Of a stretch of DNA of 64,000 bases, positions 1,825 through 60,718 are shown piece by piece. Under the pieces are notes generated by a model that was given only the letters and a program-made list of their open reading frames with translations, made no database searches and was not told where the DNA came from. Positions within the stretch are counted from its first letter, which is position 1. Every line of letters starts with the position of its first letter. Both the position numbers and the translations under genes were made by a program. The DNA is from Moniliella sp. 'wahieum' (Eukaryota): positions 310,001 to 374,000 of the forward strand of contig RSEE01000023.1 in the NCBI GenBank assembly GCA_003971905.1. The letters are read 5' to 3'.

Positions 1825-2715
1825 GGGCACCGCGGTTGAAATGGCCCCTCTCCTCTTCCCTCCTGCCCCTGCCCCTCTTCCCTGCTTCATCCTCTATAAC
1901 CCTGTGTAAACTCCAGGACCAGAATGTCTGTTACCCTCCGTTTTCCTGTGGGTTTTACCACCACTTTGGCTGTCTTTGGCCCGTCCTGTGTCCGTTATGG
2001 GTGCCGCGCGTCTAAGGTGCGCGCCTCTCCGTCTCCTTTTATTACTTTTCTCAAGGTGCATAATTCCTCCCTTTCGTTTCCTGTCGGGTTCGCGAAGCTC
2101 TCGTTGTTTTCGCTCTTTTGCCGTTGTGTGCATGCCCCTCTTCGAGATTGCATTCGCTTTTTGGGCACCACCAAGGTGGTCGCACGCCCCCCTCCTGCTC
2201 TTACTATACTCCCTTCATTTTCCTTTCACCCGTGCAAACCGTAGAAAGTACCAAACGCAACCGTGCAGAAAAGATGTGTGGACGCCACTGTTGATGACAG
2301 ATGACATGTCGATGACATGATGTGATGGACCACCCCCGTACTGAGTGTTGGAGGGTGTACACCTTCCTACTTTTCCTCCCGGTTTTATTTGATGTGCATA
2401 CCAAACACTGTGGCAACCATGCCAGATGGGATGACAGCGATGCCACACCTTCGCCCTTGGTCCCCTTGCTGATGGCAGGGTCTTCCCCGCAGCCGTGCCT
2501 GCGTAGAAAAGCTCGCTCCAAAGAACTGGTCGACGTTTGTCGCCAGGTCTGGTTTGGGGGGCGGTGTGGTGATTGAGAACAACGTTACATTGACGCTCCC
2601 CCGATTTGCTTCCGTAGGTTTGGAATGAAAGTGCGGTACAGTGCAGTCGGCATTCATGACGGCATCGTGGTCTGTAGCCAATTCCCATTCCACCCACCCC
2701 AGCCTCTATACCACG

Positions 2716-3276: not shown

Positions 3277-4448
3277 TTACAGTGTGTCGGTCAAAGTTCC
3301 GACAGGTCGGCCATTGTAGGCCACTTCATACACTTCAGTGAAAAGCGGGTAATCTTGCGTCCGTCCCCTAGCAGCGAGGAAAAGGTGGATCTCCTTTGCG
3401 GTCACTGTACCCTGCAGTTTTTGGCCATTGAGCAGCTCCGCCTCCAACTCATCAAACGACTTGCCCGTCTTGACGAACGCCTCCGCCACCCGTCGGTTCC
3501 TCCCTCCATAGCACGTTGTGATCAAGTCAGCAACTCCGGCGGAGGTCTCGGTAAATGTCTCTGACTTGACAGGAAGAACTCTTGGGCGAAAGTCTTCATC
3601 TCAATCAGCCCAATCCGCATGATGGCGGCCTTGGCATTATCGCCCCAGCCCAGGCCATCCACAAGACCGGCAGCGATGGCCACCACATTTTTCAGCGCAC
3701 CCCCAAGAGAAACACCATACACGTCTTCCACCAGCCCCACCCGGAACTTGGGCGTCTCAAACAGCTTGTGGAACAGCTCTGCCCATGCTCTCTGGCCCTC
3801 TCGGTAGCCAATAGTTGTTTCGGAAAACTTGCCACGCGCCACTTCTGACGCAATGTTGGCCCCCGACAAAGCGGAACACTTGCACCCCAGGTACTCTTCA
3901 ATCACATCGGCAAAAACACGGATGTGGGTCGTCTGCACCTCCACACACCCTTGATCATGGAGATGGCGTGGGAGTGCGGAGCGATATGCCCTTGGAGCTG
4001 CTTGCACAGCCCATCGATAAATTGGTGGGGGTGACAAAGAGAGCAGGTTCGCATCCCGCGCCGTCTCGACGGGGTCGGGGCAGGCATAGATGTTGTTAGG
4101 CAAACGGACACCGGGGAGGTACTTGACATTCTCGTGGTCCGAGTTAATAATCTCGGTGAGCTTGCGGCCGTTGACCTCCTCCTCGTAAACGTACATCCAT
4201 ACCCGCTCTTGGAAGAGGTGCGGGAACCGGCGTACGTTATCTCCCACAATCTTGGCAATGGCGCTGCCCCTACAGAAAGGGGGGGGGGGGACAAGGGTGG
4301 AGTCAGTAGCTATCCTTGGCATGAGCGCAGAGGCTCAGCCTCAGCCACGGTAGAAAGTACACCAGGGACGACGGAGGGAGACGTACCAGTTGCCGGAGCC
4401 AATGATGGCAATCTTGAATTGCGTGTTGGCAGGTGGGACGGCGGACAT
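3277..4448 (-). CDS. GPD1: NAD-dependent glycerol-3-phosphate dehydrogenase
   Basis: [21 protein letters not shown], intron 4270-4386 (GTACGT...TAG), then GSAIAKIVG. Further motifs: [68 protein letters not shown]. Several 1-nt indels. Confidence 0.96.
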
Positions 4449-6304
4449 GGCGGTGGTGGAGGGGAGGTGGAGAAGGCTAGGAAGAGAATGGTTGGGAGAT
4501 GTCTGCAGCTGGTGGGGGGCAAGCTCTTTTCAGCGGGCGCTTCTAGATCCAGGCACCAAGTCGGAGGCACGGGTATTTGCGAGATGGATGACACGGAAAA
4601 TTATTGCCCAGCCCCCCAACGCCCCCCAGAGGATTAATGTCAGTCAGTCGGCTCCGGCTCCGGCTCCGGCTTCTGGAAGAGCCGGCGGCGCCCGAAGCAG
4701 GGGGCGAGGCAGTCGCGTGGCGCGCCGGATGAGCGATGAGCGCGACCAATACTATAGGCGCATTGCGTTGGGATGTGGGCCCCAATTCCTTGGTTCGGGC
4801 GTGTCCCAGCACCGCACTGAGCATGATTATTGAGCAGCCTGAGCTGTGCAAAGGAGTTCAGCAACCCGTCGACTTTTGAGTGTTGAGTGTTGCGTATCGA
4901 GCACACTGAGGGGCCTGAGGGCCTGATGAAGCACGGAGTTCTCAATGAGTCCGTTGCCAATTGCGCCCAGCGGGCACACGAAAGGCACGTGAAAACCGCC
5001 TGGCAGAGGCCAGCCACAGCCGGAAGCCAGTGGCCAAGAGCTTCAAAGCTTCTCAAGCTTCTATCGTCCAAGCTGATCACATGCAGATCACAAGCTTCAA
5101 GCAAGTGTCCAACAGTGCCACAGGTGCCTCAGTTCCACCCGGCCGTGTCCAACCAGGCCCAACTCTGCCCAACCCCGACCACCTAGCGACCCCACCAGCC
5201 AACCTTCAAAGCGTCAACCCACACACCACCTTAACAGTGAGCGGAACCTGCGTCCAGACTAGTAACTAGTAATAGCCGCCGTCTGCTGCTCCGTCAGCCA
5301 ATGCCCCTTCCGCCTAGGCGGTTAGCAGCCACGTGACGTACGGCACGTGATGCGGATATTGCCACTTCATTTGCACCGATGCCCACAACAGCTGCGACAC
5401 GCACCTGTTTCCGCCCTGCACTGCGGATCTCGGTTGGCTCAGCTGAGATCCAGGGCTAGTATACGAACAAGGGACGAACATGTCCAGTGGACGTGTTGAG
5501 CAAGCGTTGAACATTGAGCCGTCACGCCAATAGCATGAGGAGCTTGAAAACCCCTGGCTGGTGCCCACCACCCACCACACGCCCACCATGTCGGATGGGC
5601 TCAAACTCCTTCTTCCCCCCCAAAGCCACAGTGTGTTTAGCACACTCTCGGACAACTGTTGTGGGACAAGCTGCCAGCAGCGTCAAAAAGCTTCAAGTTG
5701 GCTCACGCCGAACGGCTGGTATGCCAGGTGGCCCACAACAGGATGGCAGTGCGGAACTAATCCTGCATGTCCCAACAGCCTCTATGATGATGTTCCCGTT
5801 CCCTTACTGATTCTCAAACCCTTTTCCGGGCCTCTGGGCCACCAGAACAAGTCAAACATCCCACACCGCCCTCCCACAGTGTGATTTCTGCCCTTGGTGC
5901 TCCATCGACGCCGGCACCCCTCATTAATGTCGACCTGGTGACCAAGACGCGGGAGAGTGTCCGGATGCTCTCCACATATACGTGTCCCAGATGTGGATAA
6001 TAGCGTGCTGGTCGCAGACTCTCCGGGAGCGGGACGTTACGGGGCGGGAAACGAACAGGATGTGATTGTGTGCAGAAGCGTCACCTTTTTAGGATGGGCA
6101 TACCTGCTATACGACATCCTTTCCACACCCCAAGGTGATCATGATGGCCGCCTTCCTCGTCTACTATACGCATGCATAGCTTGCCCCACAGGCTTTCTTT
6201 CAACACTACTAAAATGTTCTTTGCGCGCGGAGTTTCGCTCAGCGCTCACTCAGCTGTTCACAACAGCCCCTTCCTGGATCATGCAGATCATGTATCATGC
6301 AAGC

Positions 6305-6332
6305 TCAACGTTCAACGTTCAACGTTCAACCC
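6305..6332. repeat. 7-bp palindrome array (AACGTT-C)n
   Basis: tcaacgttcaacgttcaacgttcaaccc; exact reverse complement of 6793-6820. Confidence 0.95.
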
Positions 6333-6790
6333 TTCAAGCTTCATGGTACCTGAGTTCTGAGAACCTGAGGTCTGGCCCCTGGGGGCAGGATGACGTTGAT
6401 GATGGTACAGAGTGCGGGGGATACGGATTGGGGGATGTGTGATCGATATGCAACGAATTATTGTGGCGTGCAAGCATATAACGAAGTGCTCAAGATCTGA
6501 GACGAGGTACGGTCTGGTACGGCACCGGTACGGCGTTATATATGTACTCTTGAGTACAAGTGGCGCCGCCGGGTTTCACTGCGGCCTGGTCACCGGTCAC
6601 ACACTGGAGACAAAAATGCCGCCAGGGTTAATCGATAATCGATCGATTATAGATTTAATCGATTAGGTCTAGTTTTGAGACGCGTGATGGAATAGAATCA
6701 GAGTTCTGAGATAGATCTCTCATTATAATGATCCTAGTTACCCAGCGATGTCCTAAGTGCAGTTATGCAGTGGTAAAGAGAAGACAGGAG

Positions 6791-6826
6791 CTGGGTTGAA
6801 CGTTGAACGTTGAACGTTGAACCCAG
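6791..6826. repeat. 7-bp palindrome array (AACGTT-G)n inside an inverted flank
   Basis: ctgggtt-g-aacgtt-g-aacgtt-g-aacgtt-g-aacccag. Confidence 0.95.
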
Positions 6827-6839
6827 ACTGAGGATCACA

Positions 6840-6980
6840 GAAGAAGAAGAAGAAGAAAGAGAAGAAGAAGAAGAAGAAGGAGAAGAAGGAGAAGAAGGAG
6901 AAGAAGGAGAAGAAGGAGAAGAAGGAGAAGAAGGAGAAGAAGGAGAAGAAGGAGAAGAAGGAGAAGAAGGAGAAGAAGAA
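6840..6980. repeat. Pure-purine microsatellite: (GAA)n plus about 11 copies of GGAGAAGAA
   Basis: Directly visible; about 140 nt of A/G only. Confidence 0.97.
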
Positions 6981-7306
6981 AGTGGCACAAGACCAGAGAG
7001 GATAGGGATGTCGGCGTGGTGTCTGGATGTTGAGTAAGGTGGTCAGGATGATCGATGACCGGGAGAGGTGGCTGACCCATAGGATCCTGGCTATTGACCA
7101 TCCATGCATCCCATATATCTTGTGCATGCAACGATTCTGTCGAAGATGACAGAAAGGGCTTCAACTTGAACGGGAACATAGTATGGTGGGAACTGAAAGT
7201 AATGAAGAGGGTATACTCAAGAGAAGGCTGGATCTTTTTGAAGTACACCATCACGTATACTATTGGCACACCGGCCACGGCCGTTTGCACCAAAAGCACA
7301 AAAATG

Positions 7307-7340
7307 CACCATACACCATACCCCATACACCATACACCAT
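7307..7340. repeat. (CACCATA)n heptamer tandem repeat
   Basis: caccatacaccataccccatacaccatacaccat. Confidence 0.85.
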
Positions 7341-7556
7341 ACGCACCACATACATCTTTAATTCTTGCAAACCACACGGCCCTATCATGCATCATGCCGC
7401 ATTCTTAAAAACAACTATCAGTGTGGCATGTATAGCGTAGAGTACTAGGGGCAGATATCAACGCACATTCGTTGTGCACGTCTGTTTTTGTATGTAATAT
7501 TTGCTTACACACTGTCGGAATGCTCGAAACTGAGAAGTAGTATCTCCTGTGTTGCT

Positions 7557-8018
7557 TCCATTTCATTGGCAGAGCTTAAGGCTGGGACAGGGGGAACGCT
7601 ACGTCTAAACCTAACCGTTCATCTTGCGGGGGTTACTTGGGGGCGCTACCAGGGTCAAGGAACCAGGGGGATCGCCAGGATATCAGGACCCTCCGGCTCG
7701 CGCCATCCGGTCCCGTACCCTAGGTAGCGCGTGTGGACACGGATGAACGTGGTTGACATCCGAGCGAGGAACCATTTCCACTGAGACTTGGTAGCCAACT
7801 CCTTCCAATGCGCAAACAACTTGCCCGCTGTCTTGGTGCCGTAGTATCCTCGCGTCGTCAAAACCAGGGGGAAAAACCGCTCTTGAGTGCGTCCCTGGTA
7901 CTTGGCGTTCTTGTCGCATTCTGCTTGTTCAAGCATCCGAAGCAGCTCCTTCTCCCGGCGTTCCAAGGGGGTTGCGGTGCTCTCATGCACCACCCTCTGG
8001 AACGCGCTCTGCGCCTCC
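7557..8018 (-). mobile_element. 5'-truncated non-LTR retrotransposon (CRE/Cnl1-like): restriction-like endonuclease C-terminus plus 3' UTR
   Basis: ERREKELLRMLEQAECDKNAKYQGRTQERFFPLVLTTRG fits the RLE E..K..KY...F.P.....G pattern. A second diverged copy lies at 10667-11240; similarity between copies stops near 8018. Confidence 0.8.
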
Positions 8019-8019
8019 A

Positions 8020-10330
8020 GCATACAGATAGAAAAAAGAGAGTCTGATACAAAAAAATATACTGACAAGGTTCAACCGGATACCGCGTCTCTCATATACG
8101 ATTGTCGGAGCTTCCTATAGTTTCCTTCAGAGCACGGGACGCCACTATATATGGCGGTAAGAAATTGTGATAAAGGGGGCAATATACCTCCACACCCGAG
8201 AGACAGCATGAGTGACAAGACGGAGATGGGGGAAAGGGCGCAGATGGATTGCATACATCTATGGACGCAGAGGAGGTTATGTACCTCCTCAGGAAGGGGG
8301 CACAGTCGAGAGGTGGACACAGGATCTCCCAACTGATAAGAATCACGCCATAGTGCCCATACGGGTCTAGTGGCCAAGGGGCCCCTAGCACGGCGTGAGT
8401 CTGACAATGAGTATGGAATGGAGAGACGAGAGCTAGTCAATTGCTCTCGAAGAAGACACGCGAGACGGATGAGACACAGGGAGATCATGAAAATCCAAAA
8501 AGGGAATTTGAGGCAAGAGAAGTATGTGAGGGAGCAGGGGGAATTTTGCCGGTACCGTGGTCAACAGAATGGGGAAAGGGGAGAGGAAGGGAGGGGGGAG
8601 GGGAAGTCCGGCCGGGGGCGAGATACACAAGGGAAAAATTGATGCTTGTGCCACAACCTGGATGAAAGGTCGAAAACTTGCAGAGATGCAAAAAAGGTAT
8701 GAAGGAGGACAGAGAGGATGACCGAACGAAGGTAATGAGGAAAAAGCCGCATCACACGTCAACGGGAAAAGGGGATCTTACATCGTGATTGGGCTAAATG
8801 AAAGAAGAGGGGGTAAGGATGAGCGCACCGATAAGTCAAGGGGGGCAGCGTGTCATGTTCTTCTTCACCTCCAGTTGAAGGGGAAGGATTTTCCGTGTTT
8901 TTTGGTGGGCAGGGGACAGAAGTCAAAGCGGTAGCCAATTCCTCAGATTTAGAAGAGGGAGGACAGGTATGTTCCTGTTTGAGAGACGGTGGCGCGGAGG
9001 GACCCAACTTGGGAAGAAACAGATGCATCACCAACAAGAGCTACTGAGTCTGGGTCAGCTTCACGAGAAGGAAGCATTGGTTCCCACATGCTCTTCGGTT
9101 TGGCAGGTGCACCGTGGGTCGTTTGCTTGAAACTGGGGCTGCGTGTGTGCTGATCTTTGTGTTTCCCATTGGACTCGGTAGGAGCGGCTGCGCCTCCGTC
9201 GGACGTCACGCCCCTTCATCTCTTCAAGAATGATATCCCCTAGGTGGCCAGAAATTGAAATATGTGGGATGCGACCCAGGAAATGTGTTCGTCAGGAGAA
9301 TCCAGCGTTTCAGCCGCAGGAGGAGAGGCTGCTTCAGCTTCCGGAATACCGCTAGACCGAGGGAAAGGTGCGTTTATCTTTGCCGGAGGTGGTTTGGGAG
9401 GAGACGAGATAATCGGTGGGGCGGGGCGAAAGGAAAAGTCGGGTTTCCATTTGCGTCGCCTATATGTTGCATTGTCAAAACGTGAGCGATCGCAGGTTAG
9501 CAATGCGTTGCACAACAGAAGTCTCATCCGGGGGCAAAAACGAACATGTGCAAAAAGTGTTGCAAGTCCTCTTGCGTTCGTTGCGCTTCGACACGCCGCG
9601 CATCCAGTCCCTCGCCATGCAGGTTGAGATCTGCTGGATGATCTGAGCCGAAGCGTGAGACGATGGGGCCTTGCGATGTGGTGGCGTCTCCTCCAGGGGT
9701 GATGGAGATGGGGGTGAATTCAAGAGGGTGTGGTGGTGTCGGTAGAGAACGACGGACAGGTGGCATGGATGTTGAAGATGTGGTATGGATGGAAATGGCA
9801 GAAGGGGCCGATTGACTGCTGCTTGCCACGAGCGGAAGCTGGGGCGGGAGAGAGTTAACATCACTATTACTGTGTGTAGGCTACTGCGAAGGGGAGAGGG
9901 ATGAAGGCTGGGGGAAAGGTGGGGTTCGGGATTCTTTTGGGCTGGTGAAGCTGGTGCAACAAACTCGACAGAAACCGCATCAGGTTCCACCACTGGCGGA
10001 GGAACTTGCACTGATACTGGTTTTCGCTGCACGGCTGTTGGAACAGAAGGTGGTGGGACGGAGGTGATGGAGGGGGCTGGGGGAGAAGGGAGCGATGGAA
10101 TCGAGCCGTGGGGCTTCGAGGGAGGAAGCGGGCAACAAGAGTGTGGGTGCGGAGGTTGTGGCTGTGCCTGCGCATGCTAATGACTTGCTGGTGGTTGCGC
10201 GTCGGATCTTGACTTTGGCCAAGACCATCAATCAAGCCTGCCTCATTGGAGGCAGAGCCTTGGGCGAGGTCAGGCCCCCACTACGATGGAACCAGCGCGA
10301 CAGCAAGCCAATCTTGCCCATGATGATCGT
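8020..10330 (-). pseudogene. Decayed Pro/Ser-rich gene, possibly a Cdc25-type RasGEF relic
   Basis: Chain of broken minus-strand ORFs with in-frame stops (e.g. FQFLAT*GISFLKR*). Fragments LYHNF/LTAIYSGV, SEGNYRKLRQ and SVYFFVSDSLF occur in the order of RasGEF motifs NNF.S..AI..GL, S..NY..YR and G.YL.DL.F. Confidence 0.33.
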
Positions 10331-10464
10331 GGAGAAGATGAACAACAGAATCAGGAGTGCTCCAATATGCAGCCAAAGGGGGGGCGGGTCCAACACGTGA
10401 GGGTGTGTGTGGCTATACGATGAAATTAAGGGCTAAACGTTAAAAGAGGGTGCATATAATGGAA

Positions 10465-10548
10465 CCATATCATTTGACAGAGCTTTTTAAACTGCTTAAG
10501 GCTGTGGGACAAAGAAACGCTCTGTCTAAACCGGCCGGTACATTCATC
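10465..10548 (-). mobile_element. Diverged 3'-end copy of the CRE-like element
   Basis: ccatatcatttgacagagc...gcttaaggctgtgggacaaagaaacgctctgtctaaacc...ttcatc matches 7557-7623 and 10667-10735. Confidence 0.7.
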
Positions 10549-10666
10549 CGATTCAAGCTCTGATGTATATACTTTTTTGCGGGAGCATTTGGGTGGCGGG
10601 TAGCTCGGCAGTGGCGCCCATGGTGGGTGCCACAACCGCTCAAAAACTTTTTATCTCTAGACTTCA

Positions 10667-11240
10667 TCCATATCATTTTGACAGTGAGCTTAAGGCTGGG
10701 ACAGGGAAACGCCACGCCTAAACCGACCCGTTCATCTTGCATGTGCTGCTTGGTAGCGCCAACCCCGCTTAAGGAACCAGGAGAATCGCAAGGTGATCAG
10801 GACCCTCTGGTGCCTGCCATCCGTTCCCGTACCCGAGGCAGCGCGTGTGGACATGGATGAACTCGATGAACGTGGTAAGCATCCGAGCGAGGAACCATTT
10901 CCATTGAAAGTCAGTAGTGAAATCCTTCCAGTGCGCAAGCATCTTTTGCTCGCTGTCTTGGTACCGTAGTATCATCGCGTCGTCAAAACCAGGGGGGAAA
11001 ACAGCTCTTGGATGCGTCCCTGTTACTTGTCGTTCTTATCGCATTCTGCTTGTTCCACAGCAGCTGAAGCAGCCCCTTCTCCCGGCGTTCCAAAGGCGTC
11101 GCGGTGCTCTCATGCACTATCCTCCGGTACGCGCTTTGCGCCTCCTGCGATCTTATGTCGCGCAGCGTGTGGTCCACCTCCATTCCTGATCTCCCGATTG
11201 CTCGGCACGAGCCCCAGCTGACCGACGGGCCGTAGTCCCG
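10667..11240 (-). mobile_element. Second 5'-truncated CRE-like copy (endonuclease domain plus 3' UTR), degenerate
   Basis: EVDHTLRDIRSQEAQSAYRRIVHESTATPLERREKGLL and AHWKD...QWKWFLARMLTTF...HVHTRCLGYGNGWQAPEGPD align with the 7655-8018 peptide. Confidence 0.82.
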
Positions 11241-11589
11241 GTTGTCTCTCCTCGTAATTGTATACCTGCAATGGGTATATTTGTCACGCCCCGCACCCAG
11301 TATGATATAGTCTGCTTTTCTATAAAGGCGCGATATTGCTGGTGTGTTACCGTCTACCACTAAGAATACTATGGGTTCATCCGCCAAAGACAGACGGGCT
11401 ACAATGTGGTTTATGGTGAGATCCCCTATCCTGAGAAGAGATCGCCAAGTCAGTGAAAGATTTTATACGCAAAGCCAAGGAGAGAGTGCCGCCATCACGA
11501 ATTTCGGATAAGAACCAAGTATTACCGGCCGAGCTGCGGAGAATTTGGAAGACGACACATAATGCCTCGCACTCAACCTGCGCTAGTGC

Positions 11590-11990
11590 GTCGAGCAGGA
11601 CCGGACCAACAGATCTGGGGGATGGACTCCAGGTCCTGGGTACTTGCGTGGTGGGAGAGGGGTGGATTTTGTCGCGGATCGCGGCTCCAGGACCAACTGG
11701 CCACAGCCTGAGGCAGGACATCCCCAAGATTGATGGCATTACCTGTCAGGGAGACGCCTCTTGCAGTGGCGGTATACAGTCTCAAACCAATTGTTGTGCC
11801 ACCTGCTCCGCACCATGCTGATGGAGGGTGCAAAGGACGATCATTTTCGACGTGCTCATGAGCTTGCCTCTCCGGATGGGAGGATGCGGCAGCACGCTTT
11901 ACTCGTATGTTGCGCCCCATGCACGTGCTGTGGGCCAACGAGGTCTCAAGGACTATCTTGCTCCAAAGATCAGTCACTTGACTATAGCTA
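11590..11990 (+). mobile_element. Fragment of a CRE-clade reverse transcriptase C-terminal/thumb region
   Basis: DGLQVLGTCVVG, QLLCHLLRT and SLPLRMGGCG occur in the order of the CRE motifs G..vLG..vG, L.HLLR and LP.r.GGlG; frameshifted. Confidence 0.7.
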
Positions 11991-12718
11991 GCTTGACTAG
12001 CTTGACTAGCTTGAAGCTTGCAATGAAGCTTGAACCGTTTGACTTGGTGATGCAGTCTTCTATATGTCACAGATGCCACTTGTCAAGGGCATGTGGGTAC
12101 AAAATATGTGTGCGGGAGGGGTGTGGCGTGGGGTAGCGGCGATATAGGATTTTTACTCGTACGTTGCGCGATCGATAAAGGACACAATAATTGTGCGTTG
12201 CGCGTATCCCCGCAAAATATATGTTCAACGAAGTTAACCCCACAAAAACTCCTCGTTCTCATTATCTTATTGCTGTGAAGCATGCGAAGTTTATGTTGAG
12301 GAGCTCCGATGCTTTGTTGCACTCGTATCTCGGCCAAAATTGCAGGGCTCGCGCTGCGTCATAGAGGCGAATTATTCGAAACAGCTCTCAGAGACCAAAG
12401 GCTGTGGAGCAGCCACAGGGTGGCTGGTGCGTTTGGCCAAGATCCCTTCAGTCCCTCCTTAGGCCTAGGAGTCCCGTGTTGTCTTCCTCCTCGCGCAGCA
12501 AGACGCGGCAGCGAGACCGGCTACTTGATGTTCCTCTGTGTAGGTGTTGTTGGTTGGCTTGACCACAACCAAAACCACACCACCACACACTCTCGCGGAT
12601 TTTGCATCGCTGCACACTCTCTCGATGAGGGCCACCGGAATAACTCCAGGTCTCCATCATCAACTGCGTGGAGGACAGTGGCGTAAGCCCAAGTCTTAAA
12701 AATATGTTTAAAAGGGAA

Positions 12719-12726
12719 GGAGACCA

Positions 12727-12763
<37 letters not shown>

Positions 12764-12776
12764 CTGACAGGAGACA
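12719..12776. repeat. (GGAGACA)n heptamer tandem repeat
   Basis: ggagaccagagaccggagacaggagacaggagacaggagacaggactgacaggagaca. Confidence 0.9.
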
Positions 12777-13039
12777 TCGACTATAGTGACTAGAGCAGTG
12801 AAGGGTGGGTGCGCACACAGTCCACGAACGGGGGACCCCGTTTTCCACCCGACTATAGTAAGTGAGCGGCACGGATCAATATATGATTTGGAGGGCCGTG
12901 CAGGGGAACTCCAACACTCTCACCCGCAGTAGTACACTGGTGCAATGGATATACCCCCGATAGTGCGCGATGGATGTGATCAATGATGCCGATTATGCGG
13001 GGAGTGCGGGGTGGCCGCGGCGATAAAAAAAATGGGCAG

Positions 13040-16000
13040 ATACGCGTCACGCGCCACCGACGAATTGCGATAGCGTCACGCGTGTCACACGCATCACAGT
13101 ACGTCAACACAGTGCGTGTTTTAAAAAAGAACTGGTCACCCGTAAGCGAGGTAACCGGTACCCGGTTACCGAATCGATAATCACATGCATCACATGCACA
13201 ATCGAGATCCATCTCTGCAGCTGCACCTAGAGTAGACGTCGGGTGCAAGGGGGCGGATGGGTGTAGCAGCTCCCTCTGTTCGTGCCTCTTTGTGCGTTAT
13301 GCTTTCCGAAGCACATACACAGTATCAGTAGCTCGAACCAATTGTAGGTGTGGCCTGGGGTGGCAGGTGTAGCACTCTGTAGGGGTGGTGAGGCTGGCGG
13401 CGAGGCCGTGACGCGTGAGGCCTGAGGCCACCGTGAGGCACTGGCCGCCGGCCCCCGAAGGGAAATTTGCCCCCCTAAATTCACCGGCTGAGGGAGCTGG
13501 AGCACGCCTGGGCCGGCACGGAGGCGCTTGCGGGCCTTGCGGAGTTCGCTGAGGTCGGTGCCACCTCTCAGGCCCTGGGGCCTGAGGCCCCTGAGAGTAT
13601 CGATAACCGGTTACTATTAGCCGATAACCCTCAGGCTGAGGGCCTGAGCCTCAAGCCTCACTAGCACTATCAATGATCAATGAGTGACCGGTGACCGGGC
13701 GACCTGTGAACGGGTGACCAGTGATCACGGTCTGATCGATGATCGAATATCGGTAATGAAAACCGGCCGGTAATTCCGGTAATTACCAGGCGGGTTACTA
13801 GGTTACTCCGGCACTGGTTACTCCTCTGGGGTTCTCCGCGGTGATAAAACTTGGTTTCTTGTTTGCTACCCTAGGAAAACACTTGACACCGTGGGGGGGG
13901 GGGGGGCAGCAGAAAGCCTATGGCCCCTAAAAACGATTGCCCAGAGTCCAACAATCGCACCCTTTGTGGATGAGAGGCCACGCCAGCAACACCAGGCAAC
14001 ACCACACACTCCCTCTTTGCCTGTGCAACAGAAGTCTCTTTTGACCTTATTCGATGTAGGGCCTTCTTAGGCCCTATGACTGTCACTGGAATTCGTGTGT
14101 GAAATTGTGAATGAGGACTGGTGGGAATGCGCTTGATCCATGAGCGCACGATCCATAAGCATGGAAGATGAGCATGTTGAATGCCGGTGGTGAGCCGGTG
14201 ACCGGTGAGTGTTGATCGTCACCACAGTGAGTGTACTGAAATGCGCTGGCGAGTATCTGTACGGTGAGTTAGCATTTGACCTAAACACAGTTGATGAGTT
14301 CATTAATCCTCGTACTGAGTACAGTACCCACCGACTGTGACTTCGCACTCAACGCGAGTTGCTGTCCTGAGGTCTGACGGCCTGACCGGCTGAATACTCG
14401 AACTGACCAGTGACTGAGTACGAGTACTCAATACTTACTCAGTACTCAACGTTCAACTGAGTACTCAACTTGGTACTCAAAGGGAGTTGCTGCCCTCAGA
14501 CTGAGGCCTCAGACTCAATCGCACTCGATACTACTCGGTCAACCCGGTCAACGACGTTCAACGTTGAAGGTTCAACCCGACGCGATTAAATGAGTACTCC
14601 GAGCACTGTTAGTTCAACGTTCAACGTTCACTGTATGTTCACTGTTGGACTGGGTCTTTGGACTTCCGAGCTCACTCACTGTGCTCAAGTAGTGTGGTCG
14701 CTCGCCACGTTGTCAGCAGTCAGTTCACTATTCACTAGCAACTAGTCACTAGTCACTAGTCACTAGGTAGTCACTCCAGCAACCCTTCTTGGCGCTCGCA
14801 CGGAATTAATTGAACGTTGATGCATTGAAGGTTGTGGGGAGACGAGCGGGCTAGTCGCGGTGGCCGAAGAGGACTGGGTACTGGGTACTGATGTGGCGCT
14901 GATGCGGCAACATAACGGGTAACCGGCAATGTTAATGAAGACTCGATGACGTATGTTGCCATAGGGGACGTGTGGCACGTCGCGAGGGAACAATACTGTC
15001 CGTGTGCTTCGTCCTATACTACCACCTTGGGCACCAACAGGCACTTATTGACTGTTGCCAGCTCGTAAATGGAAGACACTATGTGACTGGTGCGGATGTG
15101 GGGCGGGGGCAAGAGCTCCGGGTGTGGACTGCTGCGGGCTCGTCTCTAGCTTCAAGCTTTGCCCGTGAGGCCTGAGGCGAGGGGTCGCCTACTGCACCAT
15201 TAGTTGCAGTAGTATGCATCACACGCACATCACAAATGCCGCAGCAGTCGCGAGAAGGGGATCAACACCCGCAATTAGTGGTGCATCTGTGCATTTGTGA
15301 GGGATACCAGGGATACGATCGATCGGATACCGATCCTACGGGGATCGCGCTGCCAAGGCCGGAGATAGTAGTGGGCCAGTTGGTGGCAATGCTGTACTTA
15401 CCAGAGGTGGGGCTTGCTAGGACCTGCGTTCCTGTGCACGTTCCTGCGTTCCTGTGCGTTCCTGCGTTCCTATGCCGGTTCCTTTGCCTTAATAGTTTGG
15501 CAGGAGCTGTTCTACTGCTGCACCTTTTATTTTTGTTCATAGCGCAAGGCCACACGGCCAGTGCAATGGGAAAATGTGGGTGAGAGCAGCGACTGGGGCC
15601 AAGGAAGGCCAAGGAAGGCCAAGGACCAAGTGGCAGAGCGGAGCGGCGGTATGTCCATTTGTAGTAGTAGGAGCTTCCACCTGCTCTCTGCAGCTCGAAG
15701 AATCGCGCTGCTTCAAGCGTCACGCGTGACGCGCCATGCGTCATGCGTCGCTTCTGCCACTTTGGATCAAGGTGGCGATCGGCTGCTACAGCGCAGCGGA
15801 GTGACTAGTGGCCAGTGACCAGTCAGTGAAACCAGTGACTACCATTCGCGCGTGTTCGTTCACGCGTCACGCGTCACGCTCAGCAGGCTCACCGGCCACC
15901 CCGCTCACCGGCAATTATCGGCACCGAGTTCATCTTGTTCACGCGTCACCGCGTCACACGTCACACGTCACCTAGGTCCATCACTTTTTTCTTTTTTTCG

Positions 16001-16160
16001 TTCGTCGACCATTGATCGATCCATGGCCATGCCTTCCAATGCGGGGTGCGCAAGGCACAAGAGTATGAAGTGGAAGCAGCTGGAGGGGTGAGAACTCTGG
16101 AGACTATTTCGGGGAACATTGCACCGTTCCACATTTCTCCACTCATCGATCATCGATCAT
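13040..16160. repeat. Dense field of T-N-A-linked hexamer palindromes
   Basis: Examples: 13411 acgcgt-g-aggcct-g; 13599 atcgat-a-accggt-t; 14441 agtact-c-aacgtt-c; 14741 (actagt-c)x3; 14813 aacgtt-g-atgcat; 15862 (acgcgt-c)x2; 16145 (atcgat-c)x2. Confidence 0.9.
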
Positions 16161-17511
16161 CTGCATCAGTACCAGTACGTGCCCACTACCCACGCACTCA
16201 CGTACTCCCGTAAAGACGAGGCCATGCTGTGCGTGTGATGCACTTGCATGGCATGGTTGCACTGGGTGGCGCAGCCGGGGGGCTGTGTGGGATGGTTCTG
16301 CAATGAGAATGAATAAGCCATGCACTCTTGCGTACTGCGTAGCCCCCCCTTTGGTACGTAAACCATCCAGGTTTTAGATTTCATTGCCTCCTCCCCAAAT
16401 CCACTGCGGGGGTGCGGGGATGTCTCAGGTTGCTGGCCGCACGGGACGGCTGTCGACTTCCCATCCCTGCCCTTGCCGCAGCAGGCGCGTTTTTTCTGCA
16501 CACAATGCCGTGTGTCAGTGATGTCATCGATCGCCGGCATGGTTCCCTCGCTCCCGGGGTCCAGTTGCATTGCTGTGTGTGACAAGCAGACAGCGTGGGG
16601 CTCCACCGGCCTGAACGCTTACACTTGCCGTCCGCCGGAGACACCGGCGCCTCCGTTGTACCGCTCGGGCGCCTCGCGCGGCCCGCATACCGCCGGCAGC
16701 AGCCGCTGGAGGGACTGCGAGAGCATCCCAAACGGAGCATGCAGGTGGGATGCTGCGTAGCGAGTACCCAGTACTACTGGCTCAGTACTCAGTACGTGCG
16801 CACATGCTTTTAGCGCTACGAGCTGTGGGGGCTATTGGGCGATGCTGGCGCCCTGCTCTTCGCGCTCCCGGCCTAGCGCGTGCCACGTTTCACCCGTCTG
16901 ATATCACACGCCGGAAGCCGCACCTGCCGCACCATGCACCATGCACCATGATGCATGCATGATGCACCTCCGTCACCTCCCATCTACAGTCGCGCGTGCG
17001 CTTGATGCGTGACGTCGCCGCGACACCCAAGTGGAAGAGACACGGTGGCGATGTGGATGTTGGGCAGGTGCAGCTGCGTGGCGCCTGGCTGGCAACGAGC
17101 CGGCGCTTCCTCGCATACTTCTCCCAACGCGCCCAGCGCGGCGCGCAGCGCGGCATTAATGGACTCGCTACGTACTGCTTCCTCCCCCCGGATTTCTGGC
17201 ACAAACCAAAGCCGCCTCGAGCCAGACAGTCGCACTGGATCGGTGTCGACGTTGACCGGTGACCCCCCTGCCTGATGCACCCGAAGCTCCCCGCTTCTGG
17301 TGGGGCACTGGCGCCGTCCGCCGATGACCGGTGATGCATGATGATCGATGTGCACCGGCTCTCTGTGCTCGGCTGCGGTTCTGCGGCCCAGGCTCGGCCC
17401 CGCAGAGCAGCAGCCTGCAGCAGCCCTTTCCCCCTGCGTTCCTGCTGTTCCTGCCGTTCCTCCCGGCAGGCTGGCACATTTTCACTCTCCTGCCCCCCCC
17501 CCCAGATTGCA

Positions 17512-17517
17512 TATATA
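17512..17517 (+). promoter_or_regulatory. Possible TATA box of the STL1-like gene
   Basis: TATATA about 75 nt upstream of the ATG at 17588, followed by a pyrimidine-rich leader. Confidence 0.4.
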
Positions 17518-17587
17518 CCCCCGCATTCGCCCCCCGCTCTTTTCCCCACACACCCCCACAACCACAGCTTCCCCTCTCCCTCTACCA

Positions 17588-19332
17588 ATGTGGACCAGCA
17601 CTGCTGGCCTTTCCGGCCGCCAGCTTCAACTGGCCATTACAGTCACCGCCGTCATGGGTTTCTCCCTATTCGGCTACGATCAGGGTCTCATGTCTGGCAT
17701 CGTGAACGGCGACAAGTTCACTCAAGAGTTCCATGCTCTCTACACAGCTTCCGGTCGATCAGAACGCCCCGCCAGACCCTCATGTCACGGCGTACAATAA
17801 GCATGTCTCCGTTCTGCAAGGCGCCGTGACGGCCTCCTACGAAATCGGGTGTATCATTGGGGCAGTTTTCGTCCTTCTCTACGGAGAGAAGTTTGGTCGT
17901 ACCCGCAGTATGGTTTCCGGCGGTCTCATCATCATCATGGGCACTATCATTTCCTGTTCTTCGTTTAGGCACTCCTGGGGCCTCGGTCAATTTGTTACCG
18001 GTCGTGTCATTACCGGTGTGGGCAACGGGATGAACACGGCGACCATTCCCGTCTGGCAATCGGAGTTGTCGGCGGCGCACAACCGTGGCTTCCTGGTCTG
18101 CTTTGAGGGCGCCATCATTGCCGTTGGCACGTTTGTTGCGTACTGGGTCGACTTTGGCATGTCCTACGCCAACAACTCGTCGCAGTGGCGTTTCCCTGTT
18201 TCGCTCCAGATCCTCTTTGCCGGTCTCACCTCGGTCGGTGCCTTGCTCCTGCCCGAGTCGCCGCGTTGGTTTATCAGCAAGGGCCTCGACGATGAGGCTT
18301 TGTATGTCATGGGCCGCCTGCAAGGCTTTGATGCACCTGACGAGAAGGCCATGCACGACTTCGAGATTATGAAGGCCGACCATCGGGCCAAGGACAGCGG
18401 CAAGTCGGCTTGGTCCCAACTGTTCCAGTTTGGAAAGGGCCAGGAATTCCAACGCATGATGGTGGGCGCTTCTGGTCAGTTCTACCAGCAATTCACGGGC
18501 TGCAACGCTGCGATTTACTACTCGACCATTCTCTTCCAGAAAGACCTGAAGCTGAAGGGCAAGCTTCCTCTGATTATCGGTGGCGTGTTTGCGACGGTGT
18601 ACGCACTTGCCACCATTCCCTCGTTTTGGATGGTGGAGCACATCGGCCGTCGCAAGCTCTTCATTATTGGTTACGCTGGGCAGGGTCTGAGCTTTATATC
18701 ACGTTGGGTTGCTTGGCCGGTACTCATGGAAGCAGCGACCGGGAGACACCTAAGGGTGCTGCGGTTGGTCTCTTCCTTTTCATTATCTTCTTTGCCTTTA
18801 CTCTTCTCCCTCTGCCCTGGATCTACCCTCCTGAGATTAACCCGGCCCGTACACGTACTGCCGGTGCCTCGGTCGCGACCTGCACCAACTGGGTTACCAA
18901 CTTCGCAGTCGTTATGTTCACTCCTGTCTTTTCCGATGCCACCACCTGGGGTGGAATCTACCTCTTCTTCGCTCTGATGAACTTTACTGCCATCCCGATT
19001 GCCTACTTCTTCTTCTTCTACCCCGAAACTGCCGGCCGGACCCTGGAGGAGATTGACATTATCTACGCCAAGGCCCACACCGAGGGCAAGTGGGCGTTCC
19101 AAGTGGCTAATGAGATGCCCAAGCTGGACCACGAGGAGATTCTGCGCCTCCAGACCGAGTACGGCCTGGGCAACTCAGGCTCCCCTGCCTACTCGGACAC
19201 CACTCTGACCGCCTTGAACGTGACATGGCCAAGGACACCCCCACTCAACTTGAGGACCGCGACGAGTTGGGCGAGAAGACTGCGCCTACACGTTTGAATG
19301 ACACGGACGCTGACGCGCGCGTCTCTCCTTGA
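17588..19332 (+). CDS. STL1: MFS sugar porter, STL1-like glycerol/H+ symporter
   Basis: GFSLFGYDQGLMSGI, GRVITGVGNGMNTATIPVWQSE, QWRFPVSLQ, LPESPRW, GASGQFYQQFTGCNAAIYYS, PWIYPPEINP..TR, YPETAGRTLEEID. Intronless; about three frameshifts. Substrate is inferred from similarity only. Confidence 0.88.
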
Positions 19333-27734: not shown

Positions 27735-27821
27735 TGCTTCAAAGGGGAATCGAACCCCTGTCACATCGATACGACACTGGCGTGATGGCAACGATGTAGT
27801 ATACCACTAACCCATTGAAGC
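27735..27821 (-). tRNA. tRNA-Gly(GCC) with a 16-nt intron
   Basis: Acceptor stem GCTTCAA/TTGAAGC-A, anticodon arm CATCG-TTGCCA^T-CGATG, T arm AGGGG-TTCGATT-CCCCT, followed by a TTTTT Pol III terminator. Confidence 0.95.
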
Positions 27822-29382: not shown

Positions 29383-31290
29383 GGTGGTGGTGGAGAGGCT
29401 GATGCAGGATAGTGAGAGATGATGGAGGAAAGGGTCGAGAGTTATAGCACTTCGGCAATCCTGTCCTCTCAAAGGTTGAACAATGTGGCACCAGATCAAA
29501 ATATTTGAAAAGACGCTGGACTCAAAGATGGCGGAGAATGAGCGCAACGTCTAGTGGTCGTGTGGTGCAAACTGGCAGGGGTGTGGGTGGTTTGTCTGGT
29601 TGCTTGAAGGTACTCTCGGCTGATAGTGTTTTGACTCAAAGGGTCCCAGTGACACGGCGCTGTGTTCGGAAGCCCACAACGTCCTAGATGGTCGTACCGT
29701 CGTTTGACTTTACACTAGTTGCTAGGCGCTGGTTCTATAATCGCTTTAAGCGTCAACGCGTCAGCGTTCAACTATAACGCCTTCCTTGGACCTATGCACC
29801 GACCCAAGACGACCTAAGACCTGTTCTCTGTTTTTACGCCGAAGCGGGTAAAAGCGGAGCGAGCAATGGTGTGCTTCCAAATTTGCCGGCAGGCACGTGA
29901 AGTTGCACGTAGACCAAGTTTGACTCTTGAGCAGTGAGCTTGAAAGGAGTCGCAAACGGGCCAGGGGCAGTTGATATTTGGAGCAGATAGCGAGCAGGAG
30001 GGCAGATCTCGATCCCTATCGATATCTCCATTAAATTGGTACGAAGATCTAAGATCTAAATGCTCGGCTCAGGAGCCGAAGCCCAAACCGAACCAGCGAC
30101 ACACCGCCCCGAGCCATCCCAAACTTGCGCATGGAGGTGCAGTGGCACCGGAGCAATCGATTGGAAATTGGAGGCAATTAGCAGCAGTGTCGGCCCTGGA
30201 AGGGAGACAGCTGCTGTGCTGGTATTGTGGGGCATAATGATAACGGTGATCCCGGTGATCATCATAACGTCTGCAGCTTTTCTCGCAGTTGATGCATGAT
30301 GAACGATGCATGATGCATTATACAACTTGCCAGGTGTGTCTCATGCATCATGCATACTGGTAGCTGAAGGCGTGAATACTGTGAGTGCGTGAGTGTATAG
30401 TACTGTTGCTCAAGATGAGCCCCAAGCGATTTCTGTCGTGCTTTGCTCACCGCGCTCACGTCCGTGAGCTCATAATCGCTCAGACTGAGGTGCCAGAAAA
30501 CCCCTGCAATTACTCCCCGCCCACCCACTGAGTAATGAGTCAGTGCCACGTACTGAACACGCTGAGCGCCGAATTAAGAGAGAAACAGAACAACACGGCT
30601 CGATTCAAGTCTTACAGTGTGGCTGTTGGCATAACCGGCATAACCACGGAATATCTCACCTTTGAACCCAAGGGCGAATGCGAGCCGATGCGAGCCCCAG
30701 CCGGTACAAGAACATACACTTTTGCCGCAAAGCGCCGCCGTTTGTATGGCGGAGGGGGTGGCAAAATGGTAAACCGCGCCGCACCCGTGCCTTCTCCCGC
30801 ATGTCTAACTGTGGAAACCTCTCACAGTGTACAAGAGGGGTGTGGAGGGAGAGCAACGCGCGCCAACCTAGTCTCCGTGCTTATTTCCTGCACCTCTCCC
30901 TGCTCCCCTGCAATGTGAGAGAGATAGCGGAACTGATCCACAAACTGCCGATTGCTTTTCTCGATCCTTGGCACCAAACCACTGCTTCTCCTCTGCACAA
31001 GGGGGATGTTTTAGGTACAGAGAGATAGCATCTTTTGCGCAACGCGCGTTAGCGGTTCCCGCGTATACGCTTTTCTATACTCTGTTGCGTTACCGGGTTA
31101 CCACTGTCTGTTCCTACTTACCTTTCCACCCCCCTCTCTCCTAGTCTTCCAAGTCGATGACGACAGTTGATACTGCGCGGATAGGTCTTTGAGGTCACCG
31201 TATATAGTGTCCCCAATCTCATTTCTCCTTCTCTGCTTATCTCCTCTATCCCTTCCTTTCGCTTCCACCACATACATTCCGACCAACCCC

Positions 31291-32977
31291 ATGTCAACAA
31301 ACGACAAGCTAACGGACTTCAAGGCTGAGGGCGAGACCAAGCCTGAGGTGGTTGTGGCCACCCCAGAAGGGTACGACGACGGCGGAGTTCCAGCATACAC
31401 AGGCGAGCGTCCAGCCCGCCACTGGTGGTTCGTTGGGTCCCCGAGGCCGTTTGGCGATGGCGCCGAACCTCATTTGCCCAGATGCTCACCCTGTCTGCGT
31501 TAGCCTTTTGCGGCCCAGCGATGGGCGACGCCATCTCCAACTTAGGTGGCGGCGGGCTGGCCACAGCCAATGCGTTTCTTGCCGCATCGGCGTCTGAGTA
31601 TGCCATCATGGCTGTTCTGTGCTTTGTCGGCGGCTTGCTCATCACCCGTTTTGGTGTCGTGCCAGTGGCGATTGTAGGCTCGGCATGTTTCCCCTTGTAC
31701 GTTCATCCCTTTTATTGTATTGTGTCGCATGGGTCTACCATGTATGTGTGCGAGGAGGAGAGGTCACTGACGTGTTGTCTTTATTGATCTCTATAGCGAT
31801 GGTTCTTCCCTCTACGTCAATTCCAAAGGGTCCAACACTGCCTACCTGATCGCGGGTGAAAGCATTGCAGGGTAGGGAATGCGCTCTGGTACGTGTGCGA
31901 GAGCTGTCTCGTGCTTAGTTTGCCCGAGGCCAAGCACCGAGGAAAGTACGTGTCGTCCCGTTTCTAGTATAAGAATTGTGCAGGATCGTTCTTCCCCCTA
32001 TGCGCGTTTCCCTGACCACATGTGCAATAAACAGATACCTGGGCATGTGGATCCTGTCGCGTAATCTGGGCCAGCTGGTGGGCGGCGCGATCAACTTGGC
32101 GCTGAACGTCGACGATTCGGCTGCGGGGTCAGTGACGCCATCAGTGTACATTATCTTTATGGTGATTGAGTGCCTTGGCTTTCCCCTCTCATTTTTCCTC
32201 ACCGACCCCAAGAATGTGATTCGCTCCGACGGCACGACTATCAAGACCACGGCTCACAGCGGATGGAAGAATGAGTTCAAGCTGCTGCTCAAGACGGCAG
32301 TCTGGCCCTTTTTGGTCCTCTTGCTCCCCATGAGTTTCTACTCCTTCTTCTACATTAGCGTGTACAACAAGTACCTTACCGACATCTTCTCTGTGCGTGC
32401 GCGCGCGCTTAGCTCCCTCATCAGCCCCGGGTTCTGCGTCGTGGGTTGCTTTGGCCTGGGCGTGCTGTTGGACTACCAGCGGTGGAACCAGCGGACACGC
32501 GCCTACGCCGGTCTTGCCGTTGTTTTCCTCAGCGCAGCCGGTCTGTCAGTGTGGTCAATTGTGGTGCAGGTGCAGTTTGACCGTCACAGTCCGGGGGTGG
32601 TGGTGGACTGGACGAGTCCGGTATGGGCTAAGGCGTTCCTCAACTTCTTTTTCATCAACACGTTTGGGCCCATTGGGCAGAGTTACGCATATTGGCTTTT
32701 GAGCTGCCGGGCAAGCGACGTACAGTCGAATGCGCGCCTCGGCGGCGTCTTCCGCTCCGCCGAAGCTATTGGTCAGGCCGTCTCGTACGGTCTCATGTCG
32801 CGCAAGAATGTGAGTGCCTTGGCTGGCTTCATTGTCAATGCGGCATTGATGGTGGCGTCGTTTGCACCGACGGCCGTTGCCGCCCACTCGGTGCCACCGG
32901 TCGAGGTCACTTTGACCGCCGAAAACGCGGCTTCTGCCAAACCAGAAACCAAAGAAGCCGACAAAGAAGACGCGTGA
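31291..32977 (+). CDS. UNC-93-like MFS transporter
   Basis: AFCGPAMGDAISNLGGGGL, NLGQLVGGAINLALN, PKNVIRSDG, FSVRARALSSL, QSYAYWLL, GVFRSAEAIGQAVSYG. Introns at ~31697-31796 and ~31947-32033. Confidence 0.88.
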
Positions 32978-33612: not shown

Positions 33613-33711
33613 TGGTCAATATGAGGCTTGAACTCATGACCTTGGCATCACCAACACTCTCCAAGCGGAGACATATTAGTACCACGCTCTGACCAACTGA
33701 GCTAATCGACC
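33613..33711 (-). tRNA. tRNA-Ile(AAT) with a 25-nt intron
   Basis: GGTCGAT/ATTGACC-A acceptor, GCTC-AGTTGGTCA-GAGC D arm, TGGTA-CTAATA^A-TGCCA anticodon arm, ATGAG-TTCAAGC-CTCAT T arm, TTTTT shortly downstream. Confidence 0.95.
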
Positions 33712-36546: not shown

Positions 36547-37475
36547 GGCGGCGCAGCTGGTGCCAGCGCGAGACGTGGCCCGAGTCGGAGGCGGAGGGGA
36601 AGACGATGGCGCGGGGAGCGGCGGACGCGGGGGATGTGGGGGGTGCGGGTCCTGCTTGGCGCGACGGGCGTGGGCGCTGCCGTGGGAAGGATGCGGCACG
36701 CGAGATGGGCGCTGTGGAGGAGGACGTGGGGGGGGTGGGGGGGGGTCGGGGCGGCAGGGGGGGGGTGTGGAGGCTGGGGATCGTCAGGGGCGTGGAGGCC
36801 GTAAGCTGGCGGGGTGCGGTGCCCGGCAGCACGTGGACGGAGCACAGGCAGAAGAGCGCACCCGCGCATCCGCGCCCAGCACACTCAGGCCGTCCCATCC
36901 GCGCCACACACACTGGCGCCGTGCCAAGCGGTGACAACCCTAGGCCATGCGCCGCGCGCGGCCTGCTCGGCTACGACCTGCCAGGGCACCCTCCCCGCCC
37001 CCTGCACCATCCTGCACCCCTTGCAGGGTGTCGAAGCAGGATGGCTTATCGCCTGGCCACTGCCCCCGCGCCCGGTCACATGTCACATGTCATATGCTCA
37101 TCACACATCACGTGACGCCACCCACAGCTTGTCACACCGACACGTCACACGTGTCACAGGGGCCAGCCGCGATCACAGCGATCCACGAGCCACGGGTCCA
37201 AGTGGCACTGGGAAACAACCCCCTGTTTCCTATGTGGGTTGTTTCCTATGCCCATTCACCATCGACATCATCTCATCGGCCATTGAATTTGACATGGGAC
37301 TCCATCAGATACTACTACCCCTTCCGTCCTACAAAAATGGAAATCCCATTTGCCCTATTTAGATCTTAGACCTCAGAGATCTACACCTCACTCAGGCCTT
37401 CTTCACAGGCACATGCAACCAAGTCATATGATTCATCACAGCAGAGCCAGGTGTCATAGTCGCTTTGGTGTATCT

Positions 37476-60578: not shown

Positions 60579-60718
60579 CTGAAGCTGCTTGAAGCTTGAA
60601 GGGCTTGAAGCTCCTGAGTACCTGAAGCTCTGAATCTTTAAGATCTCTCAGATCCCACGCTTCAAGCTTCAAACTGCAACGTTCAAGGTACGTTCAAGCT
60701 TCAAGCTCTTGAAGCTGA
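60579..60718. repeat. AAGCTT/AACGTT/AGATCT T-N-A palindrome cluster
   Basis: ttgaagcttgaag ... cttcaagcttcaa ... aacgttcaag ... acgttcaagcttcaagct. Confidence 0.88.

Follow-up and report, generated by a model that had tools for sequence, protein, structure and literature searches.

Hairpins on the flanking DNA are left by hAT, Transib and MULE transposons and by RAG; their opening by a host enzyme such as Artemis has been suggested, followed by end joining and a footprint, in the available part of the source (PMC5499845). In excerpts of a second study (PMC5873905), such footprints are described from yeasts as carrying P-nucleotides, that is, flank ends inserted in inverted orientation, with a role for the Artemis-related Pso2, and fungi are among the organisms with P-nucleotide footprints; basidiomycete transposons with 7-base-pair (bp) duplications, hAT7 of rust fungi and Kyakuja of Laccaria, appear in the accessible sections of a third (PMC12730594). 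The subject of the present report is a stretch of 64,000 nucleotides (nt) of the fungus Moniliella sp. 'wahieum' (GenBank assembly GCA_003971905.1, contig RSEE01000023.1, positions 310,001 to 374,000; hereafter the window), in which short palindromes stand beside T-N-A trinucleotides (N being any base) and are concatenated, even when unlike, in an exact 7-bp register. The unlike palindromes in phase are probably neighbouring excision scars of a cut-and-paste element, an agent which we infer from the scars it would have left.

Palindromic units beside T-N-A

The arrangement of a T-N-A, four intervening bases and a second T-N-A with the same central base occurs 110 times in the window, and the intervening 4-mer is palindromic in 59 of these units, compared to 2.6 ± 1.5 in shuffled sequences. 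Palindromic fillers are limited to a gap of 4 nt; at gaps of 2, 6 and 8 nt they are found as often as chance predicts (7/30, 1/76 and 1/49, respectively), and among 68 palindromic cases the central base is identical on both sides in 59 and complementary in 6. The 59 units are arranged in 46 chains (35 single, 9 double and 2 triple), all of which fall outside the open reading frames (ORFs) supported by a protein domain, being intergenic and often located upstream of genes. Twelve different palindromes are in use, each of them set by the local flank and not by a common motif.

The dependence on the flank is captured by the half-match, in which either the second half of the palindrome is identical to the two bases preceding the first T-N-A, or its first half is identical to the two bases following the last T-N-A. 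A half-match is present in 37 of the 46 chains, about 6 being expected by chance, and left and right mirrors are about equally represented (16 vs 18 of the 59 units). In 26 of these 37 chains there is no second full copy of the unit, the periodicity extending over 5 + 2 + 5 nt only (12 nt in all); since slippage of a 7-bp unit never results in fewer than 14 periodic bases, the origin of these units must have involved direct copying of 5 bases and mirror copying of 2. A slippage microsatellite, that is, at least two full identical units growing by whole units, was accordingly rejected, unlike units being moreover found in phase. The sequence-only reading had held that units arise independently next to a T-N-A and that the arrays are more than ordinary microsatellites; the former is upheld by the half-matched chains and by those periodic over just 12 nt, and the latter by the 26 of 46 chains that fall short of two full copies and by the unlike units in phase. 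No evidence was found for its further suggestion that units are perfected after they arise, near-palindromes having the appearance of decayed scars; indeed, of the 51 non-palindromic units with the same N, 31 would become palindromic by one change and 20 by two, the ratio expected by chance being about 2:3. On these figures about one scar in four may have mutated since its formation, which fits neutral decay and not maintenance.

The control consisted of 246 kb from 31 unrelated loci carrying metagenome relatives of the sugar transporter that neighbours the arrays, the best of the 31 being 57% identical, so that no orthologous intergenic DNA is available among them. In these loci 33 of 278 same-N units are palindromic, the palindromes lying mostly in A+T-rich contigs, and a single flank half-match was found, compared to 50 half-matches in the window, where 59 of 110 units are palindromic. 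The T-N-A scar grammar is thus no general feature of DNA of this kind.

The window also contains period-7 repeats devoid of T-N-A, namely CAC+CATG (16929-16950), CAT+CGCG (60151-60168), GGAGACA in 4.4 copies (12733-12763) and CACCATA (7307-7342); the CAC+CATG and CAT+CGCG repeats resemble the lattice, with CAY in place of T-N-A. Two ACGT arrays, (TCA-ACGT)x3 at 6305-6330 and (TGA-ACGT)x3 at 6795-6822, lie 490 bp apart in opposite orientation, the latter within a perfect interrupted palindrome, GGGT-TGA-ACCC. A run of 14 G is found at 13893-13906, inside the span in which the unlike palindromes were first noticed.

Unlike palindromes in register and duplicated 7-mers

That span extends from 13411 to 17340, and the five pairs first quoted from it (at 13411, 13599, 14441, 14813 and 17327) are exact 6-bp palindromes, correctly placed; the two examples from outside (37072 and 60690) also read as quoted. 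A decisive role had been assigned to the comparison of pairs separated by a single base with pairs at other spacings, and across the 64-kb window heterologous pairs at spacer 1 are indeed more frequent than at the out-of-register spacers. In particular, among 258 palindromic hexamers of the form A-NNNN-T, the heterologous pairs at spacers 0 to 8 number 0, 5, 1, 1, 1, 0, 2, 0 and 6; over spacers 0 to 40, the 35 out-of-register spacers show a mean of 1.17 and a maximum of 4, while the in-register spacers (1, 8, 15, 22, 29 and 36) show 5, 6, 0, 1, 0 and 4, it being kept in mind that four of the six pairs at spacer 8 have no lattice in between. Dinucleotide shuffling gave 0.5 ± 0.7 spacer-1 pairs (maximum 3), whether carried out on the whole window or in 500-bp blocks (200 shuffles each). 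All five spacer-1 pairs fall inside 13411-17340, and the underlying units are densest in this part of the window, 13.4-17.4 kb harbouring 15 of the 46 chains.

A stronger test is provided by the 4-mers. Unlike 4-bp palindromes are joined via T-N-A in 31 pairs, the 15 other X-N-Y spacer classes holding 7 to 18 such junctions each (184 in total, mean 12.3) and the shuffled sequences 9.5 ± 3.1 T-N-A junctions (maximum 18-20). About one-third to one-half of the 31 junctions is background; the heterologous excess is real, though small in absolute numbers. Leaving aside the 31st junction, located at the end of the window, the 30 that could be classed have an outer T-N-A on both sides in 3 cases, on one side in 6 and on neither in 21, and none of the 184 control junctions has one on both outer sides; among these 21, several are parts of the +9 and +11 scars treated further on, the remainder being background.

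The three strict heterologous chains show a single switch each. Two of them (13409 and 14439) match one ancestral nn-TNA-nn with each flank mirrored once, for which the chance is about 1/256 each: at 13407..13429, CGCG is the mirror of the left CG and GGCC that of the right GG, the ancestor being CG-TGA-GG, and at 14437..14457, GTAC mirrors the left AC and ACGT the right AC of the ancestor AC-TCA-AC. In the third, at 17323..17343, the right flank fits and the left one is one base off (GA, GG being expected). Only the two mirrors of GT-TCA-AG occur in the lattice at 60659-60710, so that the quoted examples at 13411, 14441 and 60690 fit the two-flank model, with that at 17327 doing so after one change. 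At 14809..14827, comparison with a target GT-TGA-TG calls for one substitution on the left and a TGA shifted by 1 nt on the right. At 13597..13613 the central base is A and then T (complementary), giving a 10-bp perfect palindrome, TAACCGGTTA, which is a rarer form and possibly a longer (5-nt) mirror; its 8-mer CGATAACC is found again 21 bp downstream. The array at 37069..37096 is a CATG chain adjoining a pre-existing CCGG, to the left of which there is no T-N-A. A scan of the window for the full 16-position two-flank pattern gave 2 perfect and 3 two-mismatch matches, the same scan with the mirrors in reversed orientation giving 0 and 1.

These results bear on two more conventional accounts, either ordinary 7-bp microsatellites that abut by chance or a selected regulatory grammar of palindromic binding sites, both of which we regard as highly improbable. 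The window does contain 47 exact period-7 runs of at least two copies (one being a G homopolymer), 13 of which lack T-N-A, the chains lie between genes, often upstream, and several hexamers resemble known binding sites. However, the 26 chains with fewer than two full copies are not products of slippage, the twelve palindromes are each dictated by the local flank, derivatives one change away are frequent, as with decaying neutral scars, and the heterologous junctions exceed all the control spacers.

Heterologous pairs had been put forward as the best evidence; more direct are the scars in which two copies of a 7-mer bracket mirrored bases. Nine nnTNAnn 7-mers are repeated at a distance of 9, and the 2-nt filler mirrors an end of the 7-mer in eight of them (Table 1), the exception being at 60595. 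Where a T-N-A is followed by two palindromes and the same T-N-A (2302 and 16949), both cases show the predicted order and both flanks, their content being the 7-mer, then its right end and its left end, each in mirror image, and the 7-mer again. At 2293..2317 the filler consists of TG, the mirror of CA, and TC, the mirror of GA, and the array shows that the duplicated unit is 7 bp long and TGA-centred. Plain tandem duplications of T-N-A-centred 7-mers are found at 2293, 4728 and 15952, and between 13300 and 17500 the distances separating T-N-A pairs with the same N peak at 7 (37 pairs), 9 (11), 11 (13) and 14 (13), the background being about 6. One side of the common +7 scar retains 5 of the 7 duplicated bases. 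The +7, +9, +11 and plain forms are thus all present, the mirrored bases always adjoining a T-N-A, and across the four classes the mirror length is 2 in nearly all joints. The pattern points to the duplication of a 7-bp target with T-N-A in its centre, and to exactly two P-nucleotides per end; all four forms follow from this one scheme, the 2-nt mirror at each end being either kept or lost.

Template switching at T-N-A (quasi-palindrome or snap-back copying) might also be invoked to make the mirrored bases, slippage then extending the units. Such switching creates and perfects short palindromes, and the homologous arrays, of up to 4 copies, could be extended by slippage; we nevertheless consider this origin very unlikely, since the terminal A would have to pair back on a T two bases away, around a 1-nt loop, and the strand would then have to realign 5 nt back, without homology, after exactly 2 nt had been copied. 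Nor does it predict the restriction to T-N-A, the lack of palindromes at other gap lengths, or scars composed of a 7-mer, 2 or 4 mirrored bases and the 7-mer again.

When 27 one-sided scars are oriented so that the mirrored flank lies to the left, 22 of 27 have G or C at -3, and likewise 22 of 27 at +4, compared to 13 of 27 at +3. Behind this bias there may be a preference for certain targets or a difference in survival between the overhangs; the events are few.

Table 1. Scars, chains and domain-supported genes located in the window.
Feature	Position	Strand	Remark
Heterologous chain CG-TGA-CGCG-TGA-GGCC-TGA-GGCC	13407..13429		Two-flank model, 0 mismatches
Heterologous chain AC-TCA-GTAC-TCA-ACGT-TCA-AC	14437..14457		Two-flank model, 0 mismatches
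Heterologous chain GA-TGA-CCGG-TGA-TGCA-TGA-TG	17323..17343		2 mismatches in scored positions
AT-TGA-ACGT-TGA-TGCA-TTG	14809..14827		Partial fit
TCGA-TAA-CCGG-TTA	13597..13613		Class 'neither'; not a two-flank double scar
CCGG-TCA-CATG-TCA-CATG-TCA-TATG	37069..37096		'Right unit only'
Lattice from one 7-mer GT-TCA-AG	60659..60710		ACGT (mirror of GT) alternating with AGCT (mirror of AG)
+9 scar GGTAATT CC GGTAATT	13769..13784		7-bp repeat centred on TAA, 2 mirrored bases between
+9 scar GGTCAAC CC GGTCAAC	14537..14552		7-mer repeat at distance 9
+9 scar GATCATG CA GATCATG	6277..6292		7-mer repeat at distance 9
Further +9 scars	10856-10871, 11992-12007, 30245-30260, 30630-30645, 32973-32988		Mirror filler
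+11 scar CATGATG CATG CATGATG	16947..16964		7-bp repeat, 2 mirrored bases per side
GATGACA GATGACA TGTC GATGACA	2293..2317		Plain 7-bp duplication, then +11 scar (from 2300)
GTTCAAG GTAC GTTCAAG	60681-60698		Third +11 scar, one substitution
Glycerol-3-phosphate dehydrogenase	3522-4334	-	Pfam scan of ORF translations
Sugar transporter	17706-19297	+	Pfam scan of ORF translations
Tripeptidyl peptidase II	about 24.8-27.5 kb	-	Pfam scan of ORF translations

A candidate origin in transposon excision

In the scheme that we favour, a DNA transposon would insert at a 7-bp target centred on T-N-A (q'p'-TNA-xy) and duplicate those 7 bp, and its excision would leave covalently closed hairpins on both flanks. 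Opening of each hairpin 2 nt from its tip would give rise to palindromic overhangs of 4 nt (xy-y'x' for the left end, pq-q'p' for the right one), which would be unable to pair with each other. Usually one of the two overhangs would survive in the joint, with a net gain of 7 bp, either as TNA-pqq'p'-TNA (left flank mirrored) or as TNA-xyy'x'-TNA (right flank mirrored). A provisional reading of this dominant outcome is that the overhangs might be laid over one another, each being ligated to the opposite recessed end, and that replication or mismatch repair might then resolve the 4-bp mismatch to either palindrome; the equal use of left and right flanks (16 vs 18) would follow from such either-way resolution. 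A +9 scar would result if both 7-mers were kept with one 2-nt mirror, and a +11 scar if both mirrors were kept.

The unlike palindromes would be accounted for by one ancestral T-N-A hit twice, with one outcome each, giving q'p'-TNA-[pqq'p']-TNA-[xyy'x']-TNA-xy; since the left and the right flank of one T-N-A would each be mirrored, the two palindromes would stand exactly 7 bp apart and share the central base. Each scar would create a second T-N-A, and later hits inside the chain would repeat the same palindrome, so that a chain should hold at most two kinds of palindrome, with one switch. As one of the four possible outcomes of a second hit is heterologous, the model predicts a ratio of 1:3 between heterologous and homologous two-unit chains, the observed one being 3:6. 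On a rough estimate, about 1 heterologous and about 3 homologous re-hits would be expected in the 46 chains, 3 and 8 being seen; re-hits would thus be somewhat commoner than under uniform targeting, the numbers being too small to press.

Footprints of excision are indeed what the joints resemble: a direct duplication of fixed length brackets them (nnTNAnn repeats with 0, 2 or 4 bases between), and the inserted bases are the inverted flank ends, or P-nucleotides, in 37 of 46 chains, 8 of 9 repeats at distance 9 and both double-palindrome cases. Even-centred palindromic additions starting at the intact last base of the flank, as found here, are also those of V(D)J coding joints and of Transib, in which two mirrored bases per end are typical; for Artemis, P=2 is the mode, and the Transib duplication is 5 bp. 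The repeats of this locus are 7 bp long, and thus differ from the 5-bp duplications of Transib- or RAG-like systems; they are centred on T-N-A, and no signal ends or element are seen in the window. A further difference is that the outcomes are here much more uniform, the scars being fixed at high density in germline non-coding DNA. The flank hairpin, the opening by a host enzyme and the end joining would be shared with those systems, as outlined in the available part of PMC5499845.

With Ac/Ds and other hAT elements in plants, budding yeast and Candida albicans, the locus shares a target duplication on both sides and short palindromic insertions derived from the flanks. In Candida, 128 revertants gave 28 different Ac/Ds footprints, and the palindromes of the joints have at their centre the complement of the base adjoining the element, in the excerpts of PMC5873905; here, in contrast, one pattern dominates, the 7-mers are intact to their last base and the palindromes are even-centred (e.g., GATGACA|TG). 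In duplication length, the 7 bp found here match hAT7 only, the duplication of hAT elements being otherwise 8 bp in the accessible sections of PMC12730594. The chemistry therefore looks RAG/Transib-like by analogy, while the 7-bp duplication matches neither Transib (5 bp) nor ordinary hAT elements (8 bp).

Several other schemes of insertion were considered and rejected. Tc1/mariner elements also leave a short palindrome between two target copies, and a 3-bp T-N-A duplication plus four bases likewise adds 7 bp; however, their palindrome comes from the element ends and is the same everywhere, whereas here it varies as the mirror of the local flank, which rules out a Tc1-like duplication with element-end bases. 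A 7-bp duplication of an already palindromic target is ruled out by the ancestral flanks, most of which are not palindromes, 13 of 27 lacking any matching pair. A symmetric 5-bp duplication would be unable to yield the +9 and +11 scars, and its other product, TNA-TN'-q'p'-TNA, predicted to be as frequent, fits one ambiguous array only (13669). Finally, odd-centred joints of the hAT type with 7- or 8-bp duplications need flank identities that are not seen in the chains.

A number of observations weigh against excision as the origin. A Pfam scan of 179 ORF translations from the window revealed no transposase family, and a search of the same DNA for an inverted-repeat element with target duplication returned array artefacts only; 46 chains in about 25 kb of non-coding DNA is, moreover, a high density for an unseen element. 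The nearly invariable 2-nt mirror is far more uniform than the footprints of Ac/Ds in Candida, and the even-centred palindromes are unlike Ac/Ds joints. There are few heterologous double scars (3 by the strict definition), the paired-scar model does not accommodate 13599 and 37072, two of the seven examples quoted, and the ancestral states are parsimony reconstructions.

Some of these points would be expected if a host enzyme acted without any mobile element, that is, if a domesticated transposase or another hairpin-forming nuclease cut at T-N-A and the scars were the repair of programmed or accidental cleavage: neither an element nor a transposase is found in the window, and the unusually uniform 2-nt mirror suggests tight enzymatic control. 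This alternative is unlikely, however, in view of the 7-bp direct duplication on both sides of the mirrored bases, which is the product of strand transfer of inserted DNA; a nuclease cutting once cannot leave the same 7-mer on both ends together with hairpins on both, and a candidate gene is not seen in the window either. Carrying the excision reading further, one may speculate, with considerable doubt, on an undescribed cut-and-paste element of high activity, or on a domesticated relative, with a 7-bp T-N-A-centred target and flush hairpins of the RAG/Transib kind; because scars double the element's own target, it would build self-extending palindrome lattices in the promoters of this fungal lineage, and the heterologous junctions would be a direct read-out of its target.

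Genomic setting and significance

The window is eukaryotic DNA with 56% G+C and genes of fungal type; apart from those in Table 1, it encodes a Sec7/PH protein, a ubiquitin hydrolase, a Hobbit-family protein, Mog1 and an MFS transporter, and comparison with a protein atlas returned solely fungal-type transporter clusters. The span 13411-17340 lies within a 13-kb stretch (4.6-17.7 kb) and ends about 400 bp upstream of the sugar transporter. In this stretch no credible Pfam domain is present among the scanned stop-to-stop ORFs of at least 75 amino acids, the single Pfam match (E=0.0056) being under the cut-off of its family; at 4600-17700 it is an unusually long domain-free stretch for a compact fungal genome, and is also the one with the highest scar density in the window.

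Two tRNA genes were detected with Rfam (27735-27821 and 33613-33711, both on the minus strand), and nothing else was found by Rfam and ARAGORN in the window; because ARAGORN misses one of them and gives an unclear anticodon for the other (27735-27821), both probably contain introns. Other repeats comprise (AGAAGGAGA) x15.6 at 6839-6978, in non-coding DNA, and an array of 12/24/36-bp repeats (38376-38619 and 38700-38767) inside an ORF of 402 amino acids (37476-38684, minus strand) without Pfam match.

Excision scars with P-nucleotides are well known; the same is not true of a 7-bp target centred on T-N-A in combination with flush hairpins, nor of scars as uniform and as dense as these. Searches of the literature on smut-related fungi returned no account of palindromic 7-bp scars or repeats with T-N-A at their centre. 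If the excision reading is true, a few per cent of the non-coding DNA of this fungus would have been written by one stereotyped repair event, and the locus would be a rare case in which scars alone disclose the target length (7 bp), the motif (T-N-A) and the hairpin chemistry (flush, with opening 2 nt from the tip) of a transposon that is itself unseen; the uniform outcome would, in addition, be informative on hairpin opening and on the joining of incompatible ends in this lineage. On the two-flank model, the puzzle of unlike palindromes in phase would become an expected by-product, and the scars, by placing new 6-bp palindromes and short repeats upstream of genes, supply raw material for regulatory change.

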